This document shows, one piece after another, positions 1,058-28,582 of a stretch of 32,000 bases of DNA. This DNA comes from Candidatus Jordarchaeales archaeon (GTDB lineage: Archaea; Asgardarchaeota; Jordiarchaeia; Jordiarchaeales; Freyrarchaeaceae), in contig JAWAHN010000001.1 of NCBI GenBank assembly GCA_038889235.1, positions 1,004,499 to 1,036,498 of the forward strand. Direction: 5' to 3'. A program made the position numbers and the translations under genes. The notes beneath the pieces are model-generated. The model was not told the DNA's origin. It made no database searches and saw nothing but the letters and a program-made list of their open reading frames with translations. How positions within the stretch are numbered: position 1 is the stretch's first letter; the number at the start of each line of letters is the position of its first letter.

Positions 1058-2203
1058 CTAGAAGCATCTGTGAATTACTCCTACGCCTCCCTCTTGATAC
1101 TCTTTCTTTGTAACCCACATCTTCTGGAACGTCCTTAACGAAGCTAATATTGATCCTCCGATCCAGACACTATATTGTCTCTCGGGCGGCGCAATTATCT
1201 TTATTTCAACATTTTCTGGAACTAGCTCTGATATCTCTTTGTGCAATCTTTCCTTTAAACCTGGAAACATTGTTGAGCCGCCTGAAAGGACTATGTTAGC
1301 GTATAACTCTCTTCTCAAGTCGATGTCGCACTTCTTAATAGTCTCGACTATTGCTTCATCTAGCGGCGGTGCATCTAATCCGATAACTCCCGGGTTGAAG
1401 AAGACTTCTGGTGCTAGGAATCTCTCGGCACCAATAGTAATAGTTTCGCCATCAGGTAGTACGTATGTTTTTTCTATGCCTGAAACTTTCTCTGCAAGTT
1501 TGAGCTCCTTTTCAGGGTCCAATGCCACATAGCAGAGCTTTTCCTTAATGTCCCTGACTATTTCTCTTTCAGCTGTTGAAACGAAGCTGTAACCGCGTTG
1601 TCTTAGGAGCCTTCGCAAGTACTCAGTTATATCCCTCCCTGCAAGATCTATCCTGGTAATGGCGTGTGTTAACGCGAAACCTTCATAGATTGGAACTATG
1701 TGTGTTACTCCATCTCCCGAGTCTACCACTAGACCCGTTGTCCTTCCAGACGCATAGAGCGAGAGAACAGCTTGCATTGCAACATATATAGCCGGTGTAT
1801 TAAATGTTTCAAACATTATTTCAGCCATTTTTTCCCTGTTTTCACGCGGGTTCAGCGGCGGCTCCGTTAGTAATACAGGGTGCTCTGAAGGGTCGACTCT
1901 CAAGTCGTTGAAGAACGTGTAGTGCCAGATTTTTTCCATAGCATCCCAATCTGTAACTACACCATGCTCTATTGGGTAAACTAACCTGAGTACTCCTCGC
2001 AGGTTAAGTGCCTCCTCTCCAATGTAATATTCTCTCGTGTAGTGTTCTACGTCCGTCATTATTGACGCATACTTCGGATATCCTATACAAGTTGGCCATA
2101 CGGAACGAGGCTGATCCTCCCCTGCAAACCCATTCTTAGTTAACCCTGTTCCATTGTCTATTACTATAGGTTTCGCAGCAATCATTTCTTCTTCGCGTGC
2201 CAT
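1058..2203 (-). CDS. Asgard-type actin (eukaryote-like actin; alternative start 2242)
   Basis: Motifs are [13 protein letters not shown] (phosphate 1), [36 protein letters not shown] (phosphate 2), [27 protein letters not shown] and C-terminal HRCF. An AGGAG RBS precedes ATG 2203. Confidence 0.97.
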
Positions 2204-2389
2204 TTTCTCATATCTCCTAACATTTTTTAAAGGTCTCTTCATTCTTCCCCATTTTTCGAAAGAAATTATTGCCTTATGTTCTATTTTAATTTTTTGAATG
2301 TCATTTTTGTCAACAATATAGTTGATAACTACACAATTTTTTCTCTTTTAATGGCGATCTTCTCAAATACGAGATGTTTAGCATGCGTG

Positions 2390-2629: not shown

Positions 2630-2806
2630 TTCCATAAACTTAACTTTTCAGGAAAAGGCAAAGCAAAAATAAAATATTGTCTTTTTCCTTTATTCCATTC
2701 TTAGTTTTAGTTTTGCGCATAGGTCATACATCAAAGTAGTTAAGAAGGTGGGCATTTGGTTGACTCGCTCTGGAAAGGCCGATTTAACAGGTGCTGGCTT
2801 GTGGGT

Positions 2807-3166
2807 ATGTTCGTCCAACAAACTTTACTTTCTATCGAGGGAGTAAAGATCCCGTCTGTCGAGGAAATACTGCATTCCAATCCCGAGATGACGGTGGCAG
2901 ACGCGATAAACATGCGAAGAGAGTTGTATGGTGTTAAAGTTGACTGGGAGAAGCGCAGACTTATTGTGCACTTCAAGGGAAAATATTATGATGTCACCGA
3001 TCTTCTCATAGACATAGTAAACGAAAACAGTTACGGAGAAAGAGTTGACGAATTAGGGATGGATACCTGCGGCTTCGATTTTTGTAGTGCCGTGAAAGAA
3101 GCACAAAAGAAGATAATTCTTAAGATAGTAACCGGCGAAATGACGCCCACTTATGAAGTAATTTGA
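2807..3166 (+). CDS. Hypothetical protein (~119 aa; alternative start 2756)
   Basis: Fills the gap between genes, has protein-like composition and converges on the Dus-like gene. I recognise no motif. Confidence 0.7.
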   Translation: MFVQQTLLSIEGVKIPSVEEILHSNPEMTVADAINMRRELYGVKVDWEKRRLIVHFKGKYYDVTDLLIDIVNENSYGERVDELGMDTCGFDFCSAVKEAQKKIILKIVTGEMTPTYEVI

Positions 3167-3180
3167 GTACAAGCGAGTAG

Positions 3181-3972
3181 TTAAATTTTCCCATTTTTCT
3201 CCTTTCTTTGCCATTCTTCGATGCCTAGAGCTATTCTCCCCACTATCGTCGGGTCTTTCATGGCTGCTCGTGCAATAGAAACAGCGTCAGCACCTGCCTT
3301 TATCATTTCAATAGCACTCTCAACGTCCCTAATCGAATTATTACCTATTAAAAAAACATTAACGCTTTTGGAAATCTTTCTAATTAAATCTAGGTCTCCA
3401 CAATTCACTCCCTCCTTCATCGCGTCTACATGTATCGCGTCGACCCCTGCTTTTTCAGCAATTCTGGCAACATTCAAGTCGTCCACCACATTCCCTCTCC
3501 ACTTAAGTATAACTTTTATATCGAAAGAGTCTTTTAGACGTGTTATCCACTCAGAAAGCTCATCTAGCCTTTTCAAAAGAGCCTGTCCTGCACCTACTGC
3601 CATAATTTCAGGCTGGCGGCAATGTGCATCTATTTCCAACGCTACCGCGCCACTCTTTGACACCACTTCTCCTGCAAACATAATTCCCTCTAAACTTGTT
3701 GCACGTGCATTTACAGCGACAGGCGCCCCTCCCTCCAGCGCTCTTCTAACCTCCTTTATAAGAAAATCCTCAATCTCTTCTACTTCAACTTCGAACTCTG
3801 TTCGCCCCCTAAGCTTCACGGCCTTGCCAGCCATAACCGTTTCTCGGTCAAAGTTCAAACCTCCTAGAGTTACCATTCCCGCCCCCGCTTTCGCGGCACG
3901 GAAACAAAATTCTCCGTCACATATTCCAGCCATCGCGGCAAGTATCGCCTTACGTTTCAGGACGTCTCTCAT
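3181..3972 (-). CDS. MJ0144-family / NifR3-related Dus-like FMN TIM-barrel protein
   Basis: Motifs are LAAMAGICDGEFC, LEIDAHCRQPEI (Dus-like catalytic Cys position), IHVDAM, LIGNNSIRD and GADAVSIARA. The start overlaps the cofD stop (ATGA). Confidence 0.85.
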   Translation of the reverse strand: MRDVLKRKAILAAMAGICDGEFCFRAAKAGAGMVTLGGLNFDRETVMAGKAVKLRGRTEFEVEVEEIEDFLIKEVRRALEGGAPVAVNARATSLEGIMFAGEVVSKSGAVALEIDAHCRQPEIMAVGAGQALLKRLDELSEWITRLKDSFDIKVILKWRGNVVDDLNVARIAEKAGVDAIHVDAMKEGVNCGDLDLIRKISKSVNVFLIGNNSIRDVESAIEMIKAGADAVSIARAAMKDPTIVGRIALGIEEWQRKEKNGKI

Positions 3973-4904
3973 TTTCCCCTCACCAAGCTCATTATTTCAG
4001 AGGCTAAACGTTGCATATCTCTTTCATCATTCATTAACGTATCCGTGACGTATGGAATAACACCAATAGATCTTACTTTATCCACCAGCGAACTGTCAAC
4101 TCTGTCGAAGACCAAGATTTCGGCCACATCTTTGTAAAATTGTGCCACACCAAGTGGGGAAACTTCAACACCTAGGCTTCGCATAAGCTTTGCCGCCGGC
4201 CCGCTTACAGCTTTCCCTCCCACTATAGGGCTAACTGCAATCTTCCTGCAGCGTACTCTCCTGATAGTTTCTCTAATTTCCTTGATAGAAAGTATTGGTG
4301 CTATACTTGTAACCGGGTTACTTGGTCCTATGATAACTGCTTCCGCTCCTTTTAGTACATCAATAACCTCGCGAGGGGGCCTGGCTTTTTCCGCCCCTCT
4401 ATATTCTACACCAAAAACCTCAGGTTGTCCCTTATACTTAACCCAAAATTCTTGCAAGGAAAGGACGCCAAGGTTAGTGTTTATGTATGTTTGTACCTTG
4501 TCATTTGTCATAGGGAGAATTCTTACTCTGACATCAAGCTTGTCGCACATGATTTTTACTACTTCGGAAAGCTGAAGGCCGCATCTGAGAAGATGTGTCC
4601 TCCATATGTGCGTTGCCAAATCGCGATCTCCCAAAGCGAACCAGGTGGGTAAACCATATCTATGCATCATTTCGAGGCAATTGAAAGTGTCCCCCTTAAT
4701 CCCCCAAAATTTTTCTTCGTCAAGAATACCCGCAACGAGGTAGACTGCGCTATCTAAATCCGGACTTATGTATAGACCATGAAGTTCAATATCGTCGCCA
4801 GTGTTCACTATGACTGAAATGTCTTCTTGCGGAAGAACTTTAAGAAACCCTTTAAGCAGTTTTAGCCCACCAGTGCCTCCTGTTAATAATGCAATCAACG
4901 TCAC
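3969..4904 (-). CDS. cofD: 2-phospho-L-lactate transferase (F420 biosynthesis)
   Basis: Motifs are LTGGTGGLKL, VNTGDD...ISPDLDS, WFALGDRDLATH, IIGPSNPVTSIAPI, VSPIVGGKAVSGPAAKLM and TDTLM. Confidence 0.96.
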   Translation of the reverse strand: MTLIALLTGGTGGLKLLKGFLKVLPQEDISVIVNTGDDIELHGLYISPDLDSAVYLVAGILDEEKFWGIKGDTFNCLEMMHRYGLPTWFALGDRDLATHIWRTHLLRCGLQLSEVVKIMCDKLDVRVRILPMTNDKVQTYINTNLGVLSLQEFWVKYKGQPEVFGVEYRGAEKARPPREVIDVLKGAEAVIIGPSNPVTSIAPILSIKEIRETIRRVRCRKIAVSPIVGGKAVSGPAAKLMRSLGVEVSPLGVAQFYKDVAEILVFDRVDSSLVDKVRSIGVIPYVTDTLMNDERDMQRLASEIMSLVRGK

Positions 4905-4905
4905 G

Positions 4906-5664
4906 TCACCTGAAAAGGTCTCTTTCAGGCGGCATTAAAAGTTCTTTGTAACTTCCGTCACCTTTAATGTACTTGTATCCTCTTATTATTACTACGGGAA
5001 TTCCTTCATCGGCTTGCCCCATGATTAGCTCGGCTGCTGAAGCTAACTCGTCCGCCACGGCGACTATTGTCGAACGCAAGACGTACCCATACAAATCCTT
5101 GTCTCCGCGCCTGTCCCAAAGCGGCTTAAGTCCCGCTACTCCTATAGCTACGTTTACCACTCCCTCCCTGAAGGGTCTTCCAAACGTATCAGAGATTATA
5201 ACAGCAACATCTGCCCCCGTGAGGTTGAAAATGCCCTCTCTAATGCGTCTTGCCGACTCGTCTGGGTCCAAAGGGAGAAGCGTGACTTTCCCCCCTCCGG
5301 ATACATTTGACTCGTCTACCCCCGAATTCGCGCAAACGAATCCGTGAAATGTTTCCGTAATAATTATGTGTCGCATCCTAACAACTTTTTTTGCCTCTCT
5401 CAGGATAACTTCAACCATTTGGGGGGACTTGCCGATTTGTTTGCTTACATTGATAGCGAAAGGTGAGGGTGTAACCTTCGACAAGTCTACAACTCGTCCC
5501 TCAGCCTTAGAAACTATCGATTGCGCCACAACGATGACATCATTATCGAGTATTTTAACACCTTGCTTTTCCGCTGCTTCAACGATCAGCTTCGCTACGT
5601 CATCTCCTTCCTTCACAAGCGGTATACCTTTAATTCCTATTAATTCTATTTTAATTTGTACCAC
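4906..5664 (-). CDS. cofE: Coenzyme F420-0:L-glutamate ligase
   Basis: Motifs are GIPLVKEGDD, VAQSIVSKAEGR, CANSGVDESN, LPLDPDESAR, ISDTFGRPFREG and ADELASAAELIMGQADEGIPV. The protein is 252 aa with no nitroreductase domain. Confidence 0.96.
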   Translation of the reverse strand: MVQIKIELIGIKGIPLVKEGDDVAKLIVEAAEKQGVKILDNDVIVVAQSIVSKAEGRVVDLSKVTPSPFAINVSKQIGKSPQMVEVILREAKKVVRMRHIIITETFHGFVCANSGVDESNVSGGGKVTLLPLDPDESARRIREGIFNLTGADVAVIISDTFGRPFREGVVNVAIGVAGLKPLWDRRGDKDLYGYVLRSTIVAVADELASAAELIMGQADEGIPVVIIRGYKYIKGDGSYKELLMPPERDLFR

Positions 5665-5747
5665 CCTCTTAAGCGCCTCTTCTGCTCTTAGATAGCATCA
5701 CGTTTATCTTAATTCTTTTGAATTAGAGGAAGCGTGGAGGTCGTGCG

Positions 5748-6422
5748 ATGAACAATACATACTTGGTTATTCCTTTTAAAGGACTGGAAACTGCAAAATC
5801 GAGATTATCTCCCTTCCTTCCTCCTGATGCACGACAAAAACTAAGTCTTGCTATGTTACTTGACGTAATAACTGCCGCAAAGAAGTCTAAAATGTTCAAG
5901 AAAATTCTTATTGTGACAACAGACAGAAAATTTAAAGTTTCCTATAAAGGAGTCACCCTCATATTCGAGTCTCCTCCATATGATCTAAACAAAGCAGTTC
6001 AACTCGGAGTCGACTTTTGTTCTAAGCATGGCGCAAAAGCCGCTCTCATCCTACCCGCAGATTTACCACTTATAACGCCAAGCGATATAAAAAACATAAT
6101 TAAGATGGGGGAGCCAGATGAGAAAGTTGTTGTTATTTCTCCGTCAGAGTCAAATGGGACTAACGCACTCTTCATGAAACCTCCCGGGATCATTCCCCCT
6201 TACTTTGGGGAGGACAGCTTCAACAAGCATATTTCTGCATCCAGAGAGCGAGGTGTATCAGTCAAAGTATATACCTCCCCGACAATTAAGACTGACATAG
6301 ATTACATCAACACACTTTTAATAAACGCCCTTAATTTAGGTAAGAACACGAAGAAAGTAATTGATGTAATAAAAAACCATCTGAAAGTGGAAGGTAAAAC
6401 CCTTCAACCATCCGCAATATAA
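5748..6422 (+). CDS. cofC: 2-phospho-L-lactate/phosphoenolpyruvate guanylyltransferase
   Basis: Motifs are VIPFKGLETAKSRLS, AMLLDVI, DLNKAV, ILPADLPL, GTNAL, FGEDSFNKH and DID. It is divergent from cofE. Confidence 0.93.
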   Translation: MNNTYLVIPFKGLETAKSRLSPFLPPDARQKLSLAMLLDVITAAKKSKMFKKILIVTTDRKFKVSYKGVTLIFESPPYDLNKAVQLGVDFCSKHGAKAALILPADLPLITPSDIKNIIKMGEPDEKVVVISPSESNGTNALFMKPPGIIPPYFGEDSFNKHISASRERGVSVKVYTSPTIKTDIDYINTLLINALNLGKNTKKVIDVIKNHLKVEGKTLQPSAI

Positions 6423-6460: not shown

Positions 6461-6880
6461 TTACTCTGCAAAAACCTCTTTGATCTCCTTCACCGCATCT
6501 TCTATTATTCGTTCATACCTTCTCTCTTTATGTAGAAGGACCGATGCTGCATCAGCAATCCTCCGTTTAGCTGAAATCGGTAGTATAGCTGCCAGTATAA
6601 ACCTTTTATTTGAGACCTCTATACTTTTGAATACAATAATCCCATCGCTTGTTTCTATAGTTACTTGTTCTAGGTCTCCAAGTCCTATCTGATCTTTAAC
6701 TCTAATGGCAGTCGCGTGAGCTAGACCAGCCATCGCGGCGATTACCTGTTTACTTTCAGGACCGCTCGCCTCAGCAACCACTAGTCCATCCTCCCTAGAA
6801 ATGACACTCGCTGAAAAACCCCCCTTTTTGTTCATGTCCTCTAAAATTTTTGTTAATGTCGAAAGCTTATCTTTAGACAT
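6461..6880 (-). CDS. Roadblock/LC7 domain protein
   Basis: About 140 aa with GFSASVISREDGLVVAE, a helix IAAMAGLAHATAIRV, LGDLEQVTIETSDGIIV and a C-terminal helix. Confidence 0.85.
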   Translation of the reverse strand: MSKDKLSTLTKILEDMNKKGGFSASVISREDGLVVAEASGPESKQVIAAMAGLAHATAIRVKDQIGLGDLEQVTIETSDGIIVFKSIEVSNKRFILAAILPISAKRRIADAASVLLHKERRYERIIEDAVKEIKEVFAE

Positions 6881-7004
6881 CAACACCCACCCTTTTTGTA
6901 GGAGTCTTCTTTTAGTGCAATAATTTCTGTCCTCCCAAACATTTAAATCTAGTCTTTTTACCCTCCTTTTTCAAAGAACATTAAGTGCCTAACGGTGAAG
7001 AGTT

Positions 7005-14391: not shown

Positions 14392-15660
14392 TTAGACCGA
14401 AATTTTCGCTGAAAACGGTTCTCCAAGCAGTTTTTCTGAAGCTTTAGCGACAACTTCTCTATACTTTTCGTCCGTGTAAACTCTTATAATATTCAAAAAT
14501 CCCTTCATTACTGACACTATGTTCGACACATCTTCTAACCGTAGTACCCTCTTTCTTCCGTCCTTCCCTCTTTGAACTATCGGCAAGTTTGCAGCGTCCT
14601 CATCCATAGTCCTGTGGTAGGGAACCGACGGCAAAGTCGGCACATCTATATAAACGTTTTCCACGTCAACGCCGGCTTCCTCCGCTATTTCCTCTTCAAG
14701 CCGTCTTTTAATCGCTTCTTTGGTCATAATTGCTGAAAAAACTCCGTTCCTCACGAAAAATATCTTTTCATAGGACACTTTTGGTAAATCTCGCATCTTG
14801 AGCCTCTCGATGTAAGGCTTAGATCCTTTACATTGAAGCATAAGCCCCCACACAGAGTAGTCATCATAGTTTAAGTACTCCTGAGGGCTCACCTTTACTA
14901 TGTTTATCTCCTCATTAACTTTCTCCAGTCCTTTTTCCAAAAGAATTTGGGCAGCTCTAGACGCTTTATGAAAGTATATGCTCCTAAAAAGCTCAACCCT
15001 GGCCACAAGGAAGGATTCTAAAGTTGGTAGCGCCACTAAGTCTACCGCTAGATTTCCTTCGTGAAGGTCTATGGTGTGTATTAAGCGAAAGACGTCAATG
15101 GAGGCGAACTCTCCCCCAGTGTGGTAGGAGTCTCTCAGAATATAGTCGAGCTTGTCGCAATCAATCGAGCTAGAAATTATTTGACTTAAAAACTCTTTAT
15201 GCTTCTTCTGTAGTTTACCTACGGCTAGAAGTGCTACGTCTTTAGCGTTTAATCCAATCGACTCTACAGCGTCTTTGAGTGAAGTTTGCGTAATTATTTC
15301 CATAGTAATGTCTTCATGTGTCTTTTTAAGGTGCCTAATAAGCAGCGCTTCAAACACATGGCTGAATGGACCATGCCCCACATCGTGAAGCAGCCCAGCT
15401 ATTTTAATCATTTCTACAGCGTCGCTTTCTAAATACCCCTTACTCACTAAGGACTCGGCCATTAAATTTGAAAGGTGCATTACACCGAGGGAGTGTTCAA
15501 ACCGTGTATGGACTCCCGCAGGGTAAACAAATTCGCTTCCAGCTAACTGCCTTATTCTACGCAATCTTTGGACAGCTTCTGTATCTATCACCTTTACTTC
15601 TTCGAAATCGCATTGAATGTAACCATAAATGGGATCTTTGATCAGGATTTTTTTCTTCAC
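14392..15660 (-). CDS. HD-superfamily phosphohydrolase (COG1078, SAMHD1/dNTP triphosphohydrolase-like)
   Basis: Motifs are KDPIYGYI, QRLRRIRQL, HTRFEHSLGV, LLHDVGHGPFSH and DCDKLDYILRD. Confidence 0.92.
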   Translation of the reverse strand: MKKKILIKDPIYGYIQCDFEEVKVIDTEAVQRLRRIRQLAGSEFVYPAGVHTRFEHSLGVMHLSNLMAESLVSKGYLESDAVEMIKIAGLLHDVGHGPFSHVFEALLIRHLKKTHEDITMEIITQTSLKDAVESIGLNAKDVALLAVGKLQKKHKEFLSQIISSSIDCDKLDYILRDSYHTGGEFASIDVFRLIHTIDLHEGNLAVDLVALPTLESFLVARVELFRSIYFHKASRAAQILLEKGLEKVNEEINIVKVSPQEYLNYDDYSVWGLMLQCKGSKPYIERLKMRDLPKVSYEKIFFVRNGVFSAIMTKEAIKRRLEEEIAEEAGVDVENVYIDVPTLPSVPYHRTMDEDAANLPIVQRGKDGRKRVLRLEDVSNIVSVMKGFLNIIRVYTDEKYREVVAKASEKLLGEPFSAKISV

Positions 15661-16964
15661 TCCCCTTTCTCTCCCCTATTCTTTCTAAAAATTTTTTCAC
15701 ATACTTTTTTGACATCTTCTACATATCTTTTTTCCGCGAAAACATAAACCTGCATCAGACTATTATACCTCGCTTTCAAGGTTTGAACTAAATTAGGGTC
15801 GTATTCCTCAAGTCCCCGCCCTCCTGCCCTCACCTCGCTCACTTCGGTGTAGTAATCTCGTGGTAGGTATATGAAAACATCTATTTCTGATATGTCAACA
15901 TCGTGCTGAAGCTTCCTTACTTCCATAATTATTTCGTTTCGCAGCTCATGATAGTCGACCATCCCGAGGGCGGCTCTAGAAACTTTTTCTGGAAATTCGC
16001 TTATGTGTGCGGCATATGCTTTTTTGGGAATTCTACGGTATCTCAATCTGTATGCTAGCTTTCTAGCCTCCTCCACACTGCTATTTGCAAGCATATTTAT
16101 GAACTGGTTGTCGTCGAGAAAAAATAGGTGATAGAAGTCATAATCTCCAAGCCCCTTTAGCAAGAGCTCTAATGCTAGACAACTGGCCGCCAGAGTGGTA
16201 TGATGCAAGTAAACCTTTTTCATCATCCAGAAACGGCTTTCCAGAACGCTTATCGCTGCCCCTATAGCGTCAGTCCTGTTTTTTAATGCAAGCCTTCCAT
16301 CCCCGTCTATTTCAAAAGAGGAGAAAATCCGGTCGTCATAACTTTGAGGAACCCCTGTGTAGTAAGCATCTCTTTTCAAGTAGTCGAGTCGGTCAGCATC
16401 CAGCGGACCATTCACTAATTGGCTCAAGTATCTTGGCTTTCCCTCTCCCATTATTATTTCTACAATGCGGCTTCTGTCTCTCTTACCATACCCTTCTTCC
16501 TCCAAAACCTCTCTTAATGGTATTGCCGCATCCATTATCTCTGGGTTCTCCTTCTGAAATTTCTTATAGCAAACTCCCTCAACTATTTCGCTAACAAATT
16601 TCTCATGCGGTGGTATTATGTTTGGATAAAACCTGCGAAAGAAGTCGGACACTACGTGGCTGAAAACAGGTGTTGCCACATCGTGAAGTAGCGCGGCAAG
16701 CCTTACAAATCTAACTTCTTCGTCGTCTAGTGGTATTTTTGACATCGAAATTATCTTATCGACGCACGCTCGTACGCCGAGGCTGTGCTGAAACCTTGAA
16801 TGTTCTGCCCCTGGGTAAACTAAGAATGCGAAGTCAAGCTGCTTAATTCCTCTTAATCTTTGCAATTCGAACGTATCTAGGATCTTCTTGTCAGTGGAAG
16901 TTAGGAAAATATCACCCCAAACAGAGTCCCTTACTTTCCATTCTTCTGTGCGCAAAAACTTCAC
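15657..16964 (-). CDS. Second HD-superfamily phosphohydrolase (COG1078-like)
   Basis: Motifs are RDSVWGDI, QRLRGIKQL, HSRFQHSLGV, LLHDVATPVFSH, DADRLDYLKRD and YLHHT. It overlaps the downstream HD gene by GTGA. Confidence 0.92.
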   Translation of the reverse strand: MKFLRTEEWKVRDSVWGDIFLTSTDKKILDTFELQRLRGIKQLDFAFLVYPGAEHSRFQHSLGVRACVDKIISMSKIPLDDEEVRFVRLAALLHDVATPVFSHVVSDFFRRFYPNIIPPHEKFVSEIVEGVCYKKFQKENPEIMDAAIPLREVLEEEGYGKRDRSRIVEIIMGEGKPRYLSQLVNGPLDADRLDYLKRDAYYTGVPQSYDDRIFSSFEIDGDGRLALKNRTDAIGAAISVLESRFWMMKKVYLHHTTLAASCLALELLLKGLGDYDFYHLFFLDDNQFINMLANSSVEEARKLAYRLRYRRIPKKAYAAHISEFPEKVSRAALGMVDYHELRNEIIMEVRKLQHDVDISEIDVFIYLPRDYYTEVSEVRAGGRGLEEYDPNLVQTLKARYNSLMQVYVFAEKRYVEDVKKVCEKIFRKNRGEKGE

Positions 16965-19687: not shown

Positions 19688-20896
19688 CTACTCGACATGT
19701 ACTCTTAAGAGATCTACGTCGCCGGGTTCTCCCGGAATCCGCCTCTTGAGTATTTCAAGGAACTCTCTAACCGACCTTTTGATATCTTTAGACTGCGTGA
19801 TGTACCTTCCAACTATGAGTATGTGCGCTCCAGCATCTAATGCTTCGTCGGCATTTTCTGGAACAATGCCTCCTGCCACGGCAAAAAGCATTTTTTGCCC
19901 CTCAAAGGTCTTCTTAATCTCTTTTATCAGCTCCCACCTAGATCTCCTTCCGGACGACTCTGTATCGATTGCTCTGTGAATTATTACAACATCAGGGAGT
20001 TCTTTCAGCGACTTCAATTTCTCAATAGGGTCTGGGACATCCATCATATCTAGGAAAGCATAAATTCCAAGTCGTCTCGCTTCATAGATGAACTTATCAA
20101 TGGATTCCTTAGATGCGAGCCCAGAAGCAACTACTCCATCAGCAGTCTCCTCATATGCTAGGTCGACTTCTACCTGTGCAGTGTCTAAAGTTTTCAGGTC
20201 AGCTACTATAAACATGTCTGGAACTACTTCTCTAAGTTTGCCGATAACGCTTACACCATGCCTCTTTATCAGCGGAGTGCCTGCCTCGAGTATTATCATA
20301 TCACTCTTCGGTATTTCACTTACTACACGAATAGCCTGCTCCAATGACGGATTATCGAGTGCTATCTGCAAGTATGGAGGCCGCCATAGTCGAGGAACCT
20401 TAAAGCCCATTATTGGGTGCACCGCCCTATCTTTATCATACATTATCTTCTCTAGCGGCGGATATCCTTGCAAGGCTCGTCTTAAAGCAAGCTTTGTAGC
20501 ACTATAATTGTAGTGGTATATCTTCCTGTAATCCTTTGCTTCCGGGTGAACGAAAACGCTTGCTATTATCACCCATTCATCTGCCTTATCCGCTGGAATA
20601 ATCCCTTCCTCTACAGCGTCCGCTATAGCTTTAGCCACAGCAGACTGCGCTGGACCGAATATCTTGTTCGCCTGTTCCATGTTTTTAATAGTGACTTTCG
20701 GGATGATCAATACGTGCGGTTTTGGTGGTAGATTAGGTCTAATCACCCCTAGAAGCGGCGTGTGTCCCTGGGACATATGGGTTAAACCTTGGGCAAACGC
20801 TACTCCAACTGGGCCAAACTTGTCCCCTATGATTAGATCAATGTGCGCTACCTCCGCACCTTTGCCAACCAACGCCTCACCTATGTAAAACTCCAT
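19688..20896 (-). CDS. fae-hps: Bifunctional formaldehyde-activating enzyme / 3-hexulose-6-phosphate synthase
   Basis: The N-terminal Fae part has GEALVG.G.EVAHIDL and [10 protein letters not shown]. The C-terminal Hps part has [21 protein letters not shown] and AVAGGI...LIVGRYIT. Confidence 0.95.
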
Positions 20897-22589: not shown

Positions 22590-23792
22590 TCACTCTTCTA
22601 ATTCATATTCCTCGAAGGGGATGCCTGCTCTCTCTTTTAGTGCCTTTATTCTTTCAATTACTGTACGTATCTCCCCGCGTATTTTCGAGCGCTGGACAGC
22701 ATATTCTGCTTTCTCTATAGCTCCTGCTTGATACCTCATTGTAATATATTCTAATTGTTCCCTAAGCGATTTGAGTCTGCTCTTGAGCTCCTCTATTTCC
22801 TCGAGTAAAGTTGGAGATGCTGCCTGCTCTTTTATTACCTCGACTGGTAGCTTTGTAACAATTTGTGCTCCTCCTTTCTGAGATAACATTCTCGCAGCAA
22901 ATACCCTAAACTCGTTTACGAATGCGTCGAAGCGTTTTCTCAAATTAACAACTTCCACTAGAATTTTATCCAGTTGAGGGACATACATTGTTACATCAGG
23001 TACTCCTGACACTGCTGCTCTCTCCGAAGGAAGAATTACAGGTGCTTCATGTTGTGAAGTGTCCTCTTCCTCCAACGCGGGGACTGGAAGCGAAATGCTT
23101 TGAGCTTCTTTTCTCTTCTCTTTGAGCCAATTAAAGATATTTAAGGCGAAAAGAGAGTTCTGAGCAGCATTTAATCCACCAGCAGCTCTATCCCTAAATA
23201 TCTCGTATGAACCTAAAGCTACGACTTTGCCCACTCCGAACTCAGCAACAGCGGCAACGATAGCTTCTGGCGGCTCGGCGGTTTTGCTTGCAAAAGCCAC
23301 ACCTTCTGCATTTCCGCCAACAATTTTTAGTCCGCAGCCTGCAGGGTAGCATATCTCGCTAAGTCCTTGCGTAACAGGGTGATCTGAGAAGCGCGTGACT
23401 CTTGGTATGTTTCTGCTCATGTAATTTTGCCTTTCATCAATGACTTGATTATTCTGAAAAGATATCCCAAATCTTTCAGCTATGGCGTTTAAGTTAGTTC
23501 TTAACCCCGGATCCCCTCCTGCATGACTCATGATCAAAAGTCCTCCCCCGCGGGCTACAAAATTCACTATGGCATCCACTTCCGAAGGAGTAAACTTCGA
23601 CTGATCAGGACAGGGGATTACCAGAATATCAAATTTCTCTAGCTTTTCCTTGGTCACAGGCGGCTCTACCAGTCTAATACATTGAAATCCTTCTTTCTCA
23701 AGTAATCCCTTAAGCCCACTATAATTCAGTGCTAAGCGTCCTCGCTCCTTTTGTGTTTCGTCAAAGAGGACCTTGTAATTAAAGGCGCTCAT
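22590..23792 (-). CDS. GIFT/DUF4350 (IFT52-like GATase-fold) domain protein with C-terminal coiled coil and helical hairpin
   Basis: The N-domain reads VLFDE..KE...YSGL...L...VTKEKL..FDILVIPCP..KFTPSE..AI..FV..GGGLLIM...GG...RTNLN.I..RFGI.F.NN.V. A Pro/Ala/Glu linker follows, then heptad repeats. There is no signal peptide or TM helix. Confidence 0.75.
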   Translation of the reverse strand: MSAFNYKVLFDETQKERGRLALNYSGLKGLLEKEGFQCIRLVEPPVTKEKLEKFDILVIPCPDQSKFTPSEVDAIVNFVARGGGLLIMSHAGGDPGLRTNLNAIAERFGISFQNNQVIDERQNYMSRNIPRVTRFSDHPVTQGLSEICYPAGCGLKIVGGNAEGVAFASKTAEPPEAIVAAVAEFGVGKVVALGSYEIFRDRAAGGLNAAQNSLFALNIFNWLKEKRKEAQSISLPVPALEEEDTSQHEAPVILPSERAAVSGVPDVTMYVPQLDKILVEVVNLRKRFDAFVNEFRVFAARMLSQKGGAQIVTKLPVEVIKEQAASPTLLEEIEELKSRLKSLREQLEYITMRYQAGAIEKAEYAVQRSKIRGEIRTVIERIKALKERAGIPFEEYELEE

Positions 23793-27860: not shown

Positions 27861-28418
27861 TTAACGTAGAGAGTGCCCGCATCTTTTGCAGAATCTGGCG
27901 TCTGAGGGGAGTGTTTCCCCACAAAAGATGCAAAATATTTTGCTTCCTTCAGAACTTACATTACTTTCAGAGTCTGGTCGCCGCTTATTAAAATAGTAAA
28001 TTCCTCCATCACTAAATGTCCCGATGTTATCCCTTGTGGAGTAATACTCTTTTTGCACTTCACTGATACTCCAAAGCCCCTTAGCATACTCTATAAACTT
28101 GTTATGCATGTAACGTTTTATCTTCAAATAATCATCTTCTGACAACCCTAGAAGTCTTAATGCCTCATCTCTGGTCGCGCACTTTTTCTCCAAACCACAG
28201 CAGTATGCAAGGCTACCGTAGCAAGTCATGGCCATAGCCTTATCTTGAAGGCTTTGAAAAACTGGGTGAATTCGTTCGCTGCCAATGACCAGTATCCCTC
28301 CCGCCTCCACTCTTACGTCGGCAAATCCCTCCTTTATGAGGGCACTCAGAACTTTGTCGGCAGGATATACGCGCCCATCTATCACTATGTTTCCCTCTGC
28401 TTTTGGGGTGCACCCCAT
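27861..28418 (-). CDS. Cys-rich protein with methanogenesis-marker-9-like half domain and C-terminal zinc ribbon
   Basis: Contains TCYGSLAYCCGLEKKCATRDEALRLLGLSEDDYLKIK and C-terminal CIFCGETLPSDARFCKRCG. An AAGGTGA RBS precedes ATG 28418. Confidence 0.7.
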   Translation of the reverse strand: MGCTPKAEGNIVIDGRVYPADKVLSALIKEGFADVRVEAGGILVIGSERIHPVFQSLQDKAMAMTCYGSLAYCCGLEKKCATRDEALRLLGLSEDDYLKIKRYMHNKFIEYAKGLWSISEVQKEYYSTRDNIGTFSDGGIYYFNKRRPDSESNVSSEGSKIFCIFCGETLPSDARFCKRCGHSLR

Positions 28419-28582
28419 TCCAATCACCTTGAAGGAGGAAGAGGGTACATTTTGTCGTCGATTTCTTCTCTTAGCGGTCTCTGTTTAAAAACACCTGTAA
28501 TATTCAGATTTTGTCCATATCAAAAGTTTTAATTTTCGTAGCATGGTATATGAATTAATGGAATTAAAAGGGGCTGACTAAG

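Follow-up and report, generated by a model that had tools for sequence, protein, structure and literature searches.

Coenzyme F420 is central to methanogenesis, anaerobic methane oxidation, antibiotic biosynthesis and the activation of anti-tuberculosis prodrugs, and two sources of its lactyl group have been considered in archaea, a lactate kinase ('CofB') that was never found and a reductase ('CofX') that was only postulated in 2019. The nearest chemical precedent for such a reductase is MurB (UDP-N-acetylenolpyruvoylglucosamine reductase), which converts an enolpyruvyl ether to a lactyl ether and is a flavin adenine dinucleotide (FAD) enzyme of another fold. Within F420 synthesis itself, flavin mononucleotide (FMN)-dependent reduction of the enolpyruvyl group, which is the reaction proposed here, is assigned to FbiB's C-terminal domain and to stand-alone nitroreductases (NTRs) of the same kind (Mycobacterium, Thermomicrobia; TIGR03553; PDB 4xom, 4xoo and 4xoq). 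Dehydro-F420-0 derived from phosphoenolpyruvate (PEP) is reduced by the FbiB C-domain, and an archaeal 'CofX' was postulated in the same study, in which only Lokiarchaeum was noted to have a CofE:NTR fusion (Bashiri et al. 2019, PMC6450877); the stand-alone NTRs are experimentally established dehydro-F420 reductases in Thermomicrobia (Braga 2020, as cited in PMC8764529). Here we analysed a 32,000-nucleotide stretch (the window) of a 2.14-Mb Asgard genome (G000, Candidatus Jordarchaeales archaeon), in which the F420 genes cofE and cofD are followed by a gene encoding an MJ0144-type protein that resembles dihydrouridine synthases (Dus) and is called X below. The order of the genes, their phyletic patterns, the fold and the conserved motifs suggest that X is probably the enolpyruvyl-to-lactyl FMN reductase of archaeal F420 synthesis, i.e. 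the postulated 'CofX', and from them we infer its substrate, cofactor and mechanism.

X shares the FMN TIM-barrel catalytic domain of the Dus enzymes (DusA/B/C and Dus1-4; PF01207; E. coli DusB, 6ei9; T. thermophilus Dus, 3b0v), including the catalytic Cys, the Lys and Arg of the KxR motif and the His of HxR, and the chemistry proposed for it would follow the Dus logic, with FMN hydride going to C-beta and a Cys proton to C-alpha of a carbonyl-conjugated C=C bond. However, members of the X family are shorter (236-268 aa versus 300-350 aa), have NAHC(R/Q)QxE in place of NxGCP and HxD in place of HxR, carry an extra invariant RGRxEF loop, and are tied to F420 genes in distribution and context. 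With respect to FbiB-C and the stand-alone NTRs, X would be a non-homologous counterpart on a different fold, an alpha+beta dimer in the NTRs and a (beta/alpha)8 TIM barrel in X; it has no similarity to TIGR03553 or PF00881 and is at most an analogue of these nitroreductases, not a member. The position at the cof locus differs as well, the NTR gene being upstream of cofD or part of a fusion with cofE and X being downstream of cofD, and X may also act earlier, on PEP.

An earlier note on this DNA had described cofE, cofD and X as a tight operon with cofC divergent and with a CofE that lacks a nitroreductase domain, and had stated, correctly, that a separate archaeal 'CofX' had been postulated. 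The arrangement was confirmed on the sequence. The cofE stop codon TGA (4908-4906) is separated by a single base (4905) from the GTG start of cofD at 4904, the cofD stop codon TGA (3971-3969) overlaps the ATG of X (3972-3970) to give ATGA, and cofC is divergent from cofE. The spacer between the two divergent starts is presumed to be a shared promoter region and the purine-rich GGTGAGGGG just before X is a possible ribosome-binding site for coupled translation of X. CofE is a single-domain protein, and the FbiB C-terminal nitroreductase (TIGR03553) had no match at E≤1e-10 in the whole window genome. The cofE-cofD-X layout is far from a chance arrangement, given that X directly follows cofD in 32 of the 33 Asgard genomes that carry it and also in a number of further archaeal lineages.

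Distribution and neighbourhoods of X, CofD and the FbiB-C-like nitroreductase

X, CofD, the FbiB-C-like NTR and CitG-like proteins were searched in a sample of 151 Asgard genomes; the phyletic sampling as a whole covered Asgard archaea and the phyla of Methanosarcina and Methanobacterium, and related genomes are not independent observations. CofD was present in 102 of the Asgard genomes and X in 33, all of which had CofD (33/33), and the 33rd genome, in which X was not seen immediately downstream of cofD, has both genes at contig ends. Strong FbiB-C-like NTRs (E 1e-20 to 1e-51) were found in 54 genomes, none of which had X (0/54). The NTR gene was located less than 130 nt upstream of cofD in 50 of these 54 and 1.4 kb away in two, and no CofD was found in two incomplete genomes. 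When adjacent to cofD, the Asgard NTR was either a stand-alone gene of 205-233 aa or the C-terminal half of a CofE fusion of about 470 aa, and in X-positive genomes NTR matches were weak and unlinked (E of at least 5e-18). At the level of Asgard families, eight carried X, six carried the NTR and five had neither, with no overlap between X and NTR (hypergeometric P of zero overlap about 0.017, a value that ignores deeper phylogeny). X and the FbiB-C-like NTR exclude each other at the same cof locus in Asgard archaea. By sequence, the Asgard stand-alone NTR is specifically of the FbiB-C kind: its best solved relative was the M. tuberculosis FbiB C-domain (PDB 4xom, 2.2e-36; next match 5e-18) and it scored 136-176 bits on TIGR03553.

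In a tree of CofD the Asgard proteins formed one clade, within which those of the NTR type made up one sub-clade and those of the X type fell into three groups. Given that the Asgard CofDs form a single clade and the NTR type a single sub-clade, the reductase gene appears to have been swapped in place at a vertically inherited locus. The same tree was considered as a clue to the specificity of CofD for LPPG (lactyl-2-diphospho-5'-guanosine) versus its enolpyruvyl analogue (EPPG), or to transfer of cofD and X as a module, and contained no information on the substrate.

Outside the Asgard archaea, X was found in 100 and CofD in 148 of 151 genomes of the Methanosarcina phylum, where FbiB-C-like NTRs (E≤1e-18) occurred in only four genomes, with moderate scores and unlinked to cofD. 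All genomes of the Methanobacterium phylum carried X (121/121), and no FbiB-C-like NTR was detected in these 121 genomes at E≤1e-18. X was never found without CofD in the genomes where both were searched (133/133 X-positive genomes).

The gene neighbourhoods of X were surveyed in eighty loci from species-representative genomes. In 12 out of 12 Asgard loci cofD was directly upstream of X; in the Jord/Freya relatives (L007-L013) the order was cofE-cofD-X-cofC on one strand with cofC directly downstream of X, and in Asgard genome G062 (L087) it was cofD-X-cofC-cofG-cofH. The Methanobacteriaceae had the order purO-cofE-cofD-arfA-X-atwA-Mmp9 (Mmp9, methanogenesis marker 9), and cofE-cofD-arfA-X was seen in 24/24 loci whose sequence reached far enough upstream; the product of arfA is GTP cyclohydrolase IIa, the source of the precursor of riboflavin and of FO (7,8-didemethyl-8-hydroxy-5-deazariboflavin). 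A direct cofD-X junction was also present in 35 genomes of the Methanosarcina phylum and in the metagenomic contigs L117 and L119. The former include 16 genomes of 2.2-4.2 Mb with low X scores (156-190 bits), a class that we read as Halobacteria (the one locus checked, L115, has 70% GC), and 18 Methanomicrobia-like genomes with the order cofD-X::Mmp9-CitG-like-DUF447-DmrX and an extension of X of Mmp9 length. Linkage to cof genes is a conserved feature of the Asgard, Methanobacteriaceae, Halobacteria-like and Methanomicrobia-like genomes, as the earlier note would have expected if its proposal of an enolpyruvyl reductase rather than a tRNA uridine reductase were correct. That proposal is supported, on comparative grounds, by the cofD linkage and by the exclusion between X and the FbiB-C-like NTR in Asgard archaea.

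In the Methanosarcinales, X::Mmp9 is followed by CitG-like, DUF447 and DmrX (TIGR02700, dihydromethanopterin reductase) with no cof genes nearby. CitG-like, DUF447 and DmrX are genes which, from the methylotroph literature, we take to be methanopterin-linked. In Halobacteria-like and Methanomicrobia-like genomes, operons with the layout cofD - X (or X::CitG-like, X::Mmp9) - CitG-like - DUF447 - DmrX were found at L117:5009-8171, L118, L115:4416-6025 and L116:2617-7011, and in these four loci F420 genes and the presumably methanopterin-linked genes would be co-transcribed, judging from their order. A natural X::CitG-like fusion of 523 aa (P0121) is located in an operon cofD-X::CitG-DUF447; fusions of X with CofC, CofD or CofE were looked for and none was found, P0121 being the sole longer form in that search.

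Family, fold and proposed mechanism of X

The X protein of the window matched TIGR00736 (MJ0144 family, nifR3_rel_arch), a model built on methanogen sequences, over model positions 1-226 of 231 (E 4.8e-64), and its score was 2.6 bits short of the curated whole-protein cut-off of 218.7, a marginal difference. Its identity to Methanobacterium proteins annotated as MJ0144 family was 44-48%, with signature motifs and length in common, and it shows the signature of that family (NAHC(R/K)Q.E, K.R.N, H.DAM and GNNS in a single domain of about 230-270 aa), which agrees with how the 'archaeal Dus' proteins are characterised in PMC3674756. When 20 homologues from Asgard archaea and methanogens were aligned, the family proved to be tightly conserved and showed the invariant motifs RGRxEF, NxR, E(I/L)(N/D)AHCRQxE, KxRxN, HxDAM, GNNS and SxxR, with C118, K157, R159, H181, N211 and R235 as invariant residues and R55, R57 and R90 as further family-invariant Arg; the signature motifs were also kept in Asgard family f21 and in the halobacterial and fused forms. 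In a search of 1.84 billion representative proteins the family was compact: some 70 clusters reached E≤1e-30, and below them the matches dropped to proteins as long as canonical Dus. Asgard and halobacterial X proteins are stand-alone and the Methanosarcinales ones carry a C-terminal Cys-rich Mmp9 domain. The link to cof genes holds for the core family but not for every protein at 130-165 bits, and the divergent relatives P0170 and P0186 sit in glycosyltransferase and planctomycete-like contexts. No paper that mentions MJ0144 was found in a literature search, nor one that assigns the function of 'CofX' or 'CofB' or names such a function for X.

An AlphaFold model gave a confident (beta/alpha)8 barrel (mean predicted local distance difference test score 95.4). 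The nearest solved structures identified by Foldseek were DusB, human Dus2 and T. thermophilus Dus at the top, followed by dihydroorotate dehydrogenase B (DHODH B), dihydropyrimidine dehydrogenase (DPD), old yellow enzyme (OYE) and FabK, and all of these nearest folds belong to FMN-dependent reductases of a carbonyl-conjugated C=C bond. Class 1B DHODH, DPD, OYE and FabK thereby share with the proposed reaction the reduction of a carbonyl- or carboxylate-conjugated C=C by a flavin but differ in substrates and pathways. The score on Pfam Dus (PF01207) was above the 20.4 cut-off. In the profile alignment the AHCRQPE stretch of X falls on the NxGCP loop of Dus, so that the catalytic Cys (Cys118) is kept, as is the Lys of KxR (Lys157). 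The NxGCP loop itself reads DAHCR in X and HxR reads HVD, the Arg being replaced by D183; substitutions in NxGCP and HxR have also been described for the 'archaeal Dus' class (PMC3674756). The model lacks the C-terminal helical tRNA-binding domain, its chain ending in a single helix about 25 residues past beta8, and Dus-like representatives of 300-340 aa run about 60-90 residues further. Prediction of a CofD-X complex gave a score of 0.02, which bears on neither side.

The substrate that we favour, tentatively, is dehydro-F420-0 made by CofC and CofD, the variant with PEP or EPPG being nearly as likely. Following the framework of Dus and DHODH, N5 of reduced FMN would give a hydride to the terminal methylene (C3) of the enolpyruvyl group and the invariant Cys118 of the AHCRQxE loop would protonate C2. 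Lys157, His181 and Asn/Asp115 may polarise the carboxylate, and R55, R57, R90, R159 and R235 may bind the phosphate and carboxylate groups of the substrate and the phosphate of FMN. In methanogens the Mmp9 domain, fused to or near X, might pass electrons on to the FMN, in analogy only to DPD and DHODH B, which are fed electrons by Fe-S partners.

One ORF of the window, in an organism that is not a methanogen, encodes the second half of an Mmp9 domain (TIGR03277, 41 bits) with a C-terminal zinc ribbon and the motif CxGSLxxCCxxxKxC...LGLS. It is located 24 kb from X, and given that Mmp9 is fused to X in Methanosarcinales it could be a remote partner of X.

Alternative substrates and functions

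Several observations weigh against X as the postulated 'CofX'. The families counted in the exclusion between X and NTR are related and therefore represent few independent switches. Some CofD-positive genomes have neither X nor an FbiB-C-like NTR (about 48 in the Methanosarcina phylum and 10-17 in Asgard), which means that X is not universally required and that a third solution or a true source of 2-phospho-L-lactate (2-PL) must exist. The distance between X and cofD is 18-27 kb in Methanosarcina, and in the Methanosarcina phylum X adjoins CitG-like, DUF447 and DmrX and is found in the X::CitG-like fusion. X is the only Dus-like gene of the window genome, so that an RNA role is compatible with the gene content. 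Finally, archaeal CofC and CofD preferred 2-PL and LPPG in published assays (PMC8764529), which would leave little dehydro-F420-0 to reduce.

The last point was foreseen in the earlier note, whose caveat that a 2-PL-using CofC would need no reductase still stands, and it implies that X may act on PEP before CofC instead of on dehydro-F420-0. X would then reduce PEP (or EPPG) to 2-PL (or LPPG) before CofC and CofD, a reading that we regard as possible but doubtful. Cognate archaeal CofC/CofD pairs were highly 2-PL-specific and the M. jannaschii CofD preferred LPPG (Hasan et al. 2022, PMC8764529), M. jannaschii and M. mazei, whose CofC was assayed, belong to X-carrying groups, and no 2-PL-forming enzyme is known (PMC8764529, PMC6450877); the 'Ca. 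H. archaeon' of the first of these studies was considered as an Asgard representative and rejected, being a Hydrothermarchaeota archaeon. The many invariant Arg residues of X (listed above for phosphate and carboxylate binding) would suit a small and highly anionic substrate. On the other hand, GTP-dependent phosphorylation of lactate to 2-PL in extracts was reported by the White laboratory (as cited in PMC6450877), and in most lineages X stands after cofD and not before cofC, although gene order says little about the sequence of reactions. Reduction of PEP accounts for the exclusion between X and NTR equally well; the same chemistry fits both the 'CofX' and the 'CofB' gap, and phyletic exclusion cannot separate the PEP and dehydro-F420-0 variants. 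Were PEP the substrate, the 2-PL source 'CofB' might, with similar reservation, be a PEP reductase in place of a lactate kinase, and X-type archaea would at no time accumulate dehydro-F420-0. The lactate kinase sought since 2001 would not exist as such, and the controversy over 2-PL versus PEP would come down to two routes distinguished only by the stage at which they reduce the same C=C. In methanogens, haloarchaea and some Asgards a Dus-like TIM barrel would do so ahead of CofC, and in actinobacteria, Thermomicrobia and the other Asgards a nitroreductase would do so once CofD has acted.

The two remaining readings place X outside F420 synthesis. It is unlikely that X is a reductase of the side chain of tetrahydromethanopterin or a related C1 carrier, acting for example on a ribofuranosylaminobenzene intermediate, with the cofD link reflecting mixed cofactor 'super-operons'. 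The order X::Mmp9 - CitG-like - DUF447 - DmrX in Methanosarcinales, the Halobacteria-like order cofD - X - CitG-like (- DUF447) with the fusion P0121, and the window genome, with its ribofuranosylaminobenzene 5'-phosphate (RFAP) synthase and its Fae-Hps gene, all speak for it. So does the fact that cofD adjoins CitG-like-DUF447-DmrX in genomes without X (L099, L104), but this also indicates that the link is between two cofactor pathways and is not specific to X. Asgard X is never beside CitG-like (the two are 93 kb apart in the window genome), and CitG-like was found in 119 of the 151 Asgard genomes, including families without X (f7, 25/26 with X in 0/26; f9, 25/25). Conversely, in family f21, where X lies within cofD-X-cofC-cofG-cofH, RFAP synthase, CitG-like and DUF447 had no match in 5/5 genomes of 87-96% completeness. 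X and the methanopterin markers each occur without the other, but X never occurs apart from CofD, which weakens the methanopterin reading, and the exclusion between X and the F420 nitroreductase is left unexplained by it. Even less probable, indeed very unlikely, is that X acts as annotated, as an archaeal dihydrouridine synthase on tRNA or rRNA. X is homologous to Dus, with DusB (6ei9) as its best solved relative, and keeps the catalytic Cys and the KxR motif. Yet the 'archaeal Dus' class was set up purely by computational clustering (Kasprzak et al. 2012, PMC3674756), and X is without the tRNA-binding domain. Of two elements that are essential in T. thermophilus Dus and E. coli DusA, the Arg of HxR is replaced in X by Asp and the NxGCP loop by NAHC(R/Q). 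Methanosarcina-like genomes hold a separate gene of canonical Dus length besides X, and X occurs universally in methanogens, among them lineages of hyperthermophiles, in which dihydrouridine has been reported to be rare or absent (PMC7668247). A tRNA enzyme would also have no reason to be restricted to CofD-positive genomes or to exclude FbiB-C-like nitroreductases.

As a candidate enolpyruvyl-to-lactyl reductase, X combines universality in the sampled methanogens of the Methanobacterium phylum, linkage to cofD in four distant lineages and exclusion with the known reductase, which turns the archaeal source of the lactyl group into a question about one protein. If this assignment is true, the whole archaeal 'Dus' subfamily should be re-annotated and the Asgard loci would represent a clean non-orthologous displacement within one operon. 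X would then also be a compact single-domain part for heterologous F420 production and might be a methanogen-specific target for methane mitigation.

In CofD-positive genomes without X, a divergent X was searched for and only HisF-like noise (≤30 bits) was obtained. A DUF763 protein is encoded directly after or near cofD in two genomes with neither enzyme (G160 and G182; L097:6828-7688, L102:5929-7029) and might bear on this class. In another such genome (G025, Asgard family f18) a geranylgeranyl-reductase-like FAD protein (L093:5854-7188) lies directly upstream of cofD-cofC and could represent a third kind of reductase for the side chain.

A second, weaker Dus-like gene (75-80 bits; a frame of 321-339 aa, 466 aa in G151) was observed beside X::Mmp9 in G151, G177, G199, G209, G225, G249, G265 and G273, and this second gene of Methanosarcina-like genomes is likely to be the true RNA dihydrouridine synthase. 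In the window genome the second 'Dus' match (L002) proved to be PyrD and not a Dus.

Halobacteria were considered as a group that could separate F420 from methanopterin and were dropped, since homologues of RFAP synthase are present in the five tested Halobacteria-like genomes and in the H. volcanii control. In these genomes (G214, G285, G173, G262 and G298, of 3.1-4.2 Mb, read as Halobacteria with only the G214 locus L115 checked) and in H. volcanii the homologues scored above the curated cut-off and were accompanied by CitG-like and DUF447, which is unexpected if haloarchaea use folates only.

Features of the window

The positions of the cof genes, X and other features of the window are listed in Table 1.

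Table 1. Coordinates of the cof cluster and of further features in the window.
Feature	Position	Strand	Description
cofE	5664..4906	-	F420-0:gamma-glutamyl ligase, 252 aa, single domain; TIGR01916 315 bits (residues 6-252), PF01996 282 bits
cofD	4904..3969	-	LPPG/EPPG:FO phospholactyl transferase, 311 aa; TIGR01819 348 bits, above cut-off
X (name used here)	3972..3181	-	MJ0144-type Dus-like FMN TIM barrel, 263 aa; TIGR00736 216.1 bits, Pfam Dus 57 bits
cofC	5748..6422	+	2-phospho-L-lactate / PEP guanylyltransferase, 224 aa; TIGR03552 160 bits, PF01983 112 bits
Spacer between divergent cofC and cofE starts	5665..5747	.	83 bp, sequence read
Purine-rich GGTGAGGGG	3976..3984	-	inside cofD 3' end, 3 nt before X ATG
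ATGA overlap, cofD stop and X start	3969..3972	-	sequence read
Actin	1058-2242	-	eukaryote-type, 394 aa; Pfam Actin E 1e-139
ORF without family match	2756-3166	+	136 aa
Roadblock/LC7 protein	6461-6886	-	
HD-domain / HD_assoc_2 tandem pair and following ORF	14392-16964	-	422 and 435 aa, then a 397-aa ORF without family
Fae fusion	19688-20896	-	Fae plus OMPdecase/HPS-family, 402 aa
IFT52 GIFT-domain protein	22590-23792	-	
Half-Mmp9 ORF	27861-28427	-	188 aa

The fusion of Fae (formaldehyde-activating enzyme) with a protein of the OMPdecase/HPS (orotidine 5'-monophosphate decarboxylase/hexulose-6-phosphate synthase) family, together with the RFAP synthase of the window genome (G000:C1:1090712), indicates by sequence similarity that a methanopterin-type C1 carrier may be present in this organism. 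The 136-aa ORF next to X has counterparts with 49-66% identity next to the cof cluster in the Jord/Freya relatives, where they are located upstream of cofE on the same strand. The actin, a known Asgard hallmark, is 93% identical in related Jordarchaeales loci and adjoins the cof cluster there as well. The IFT52 GIFT-domain and Roadblock/LC7 proteins are eukaryote-signature-like and typical of Asgard archaea.

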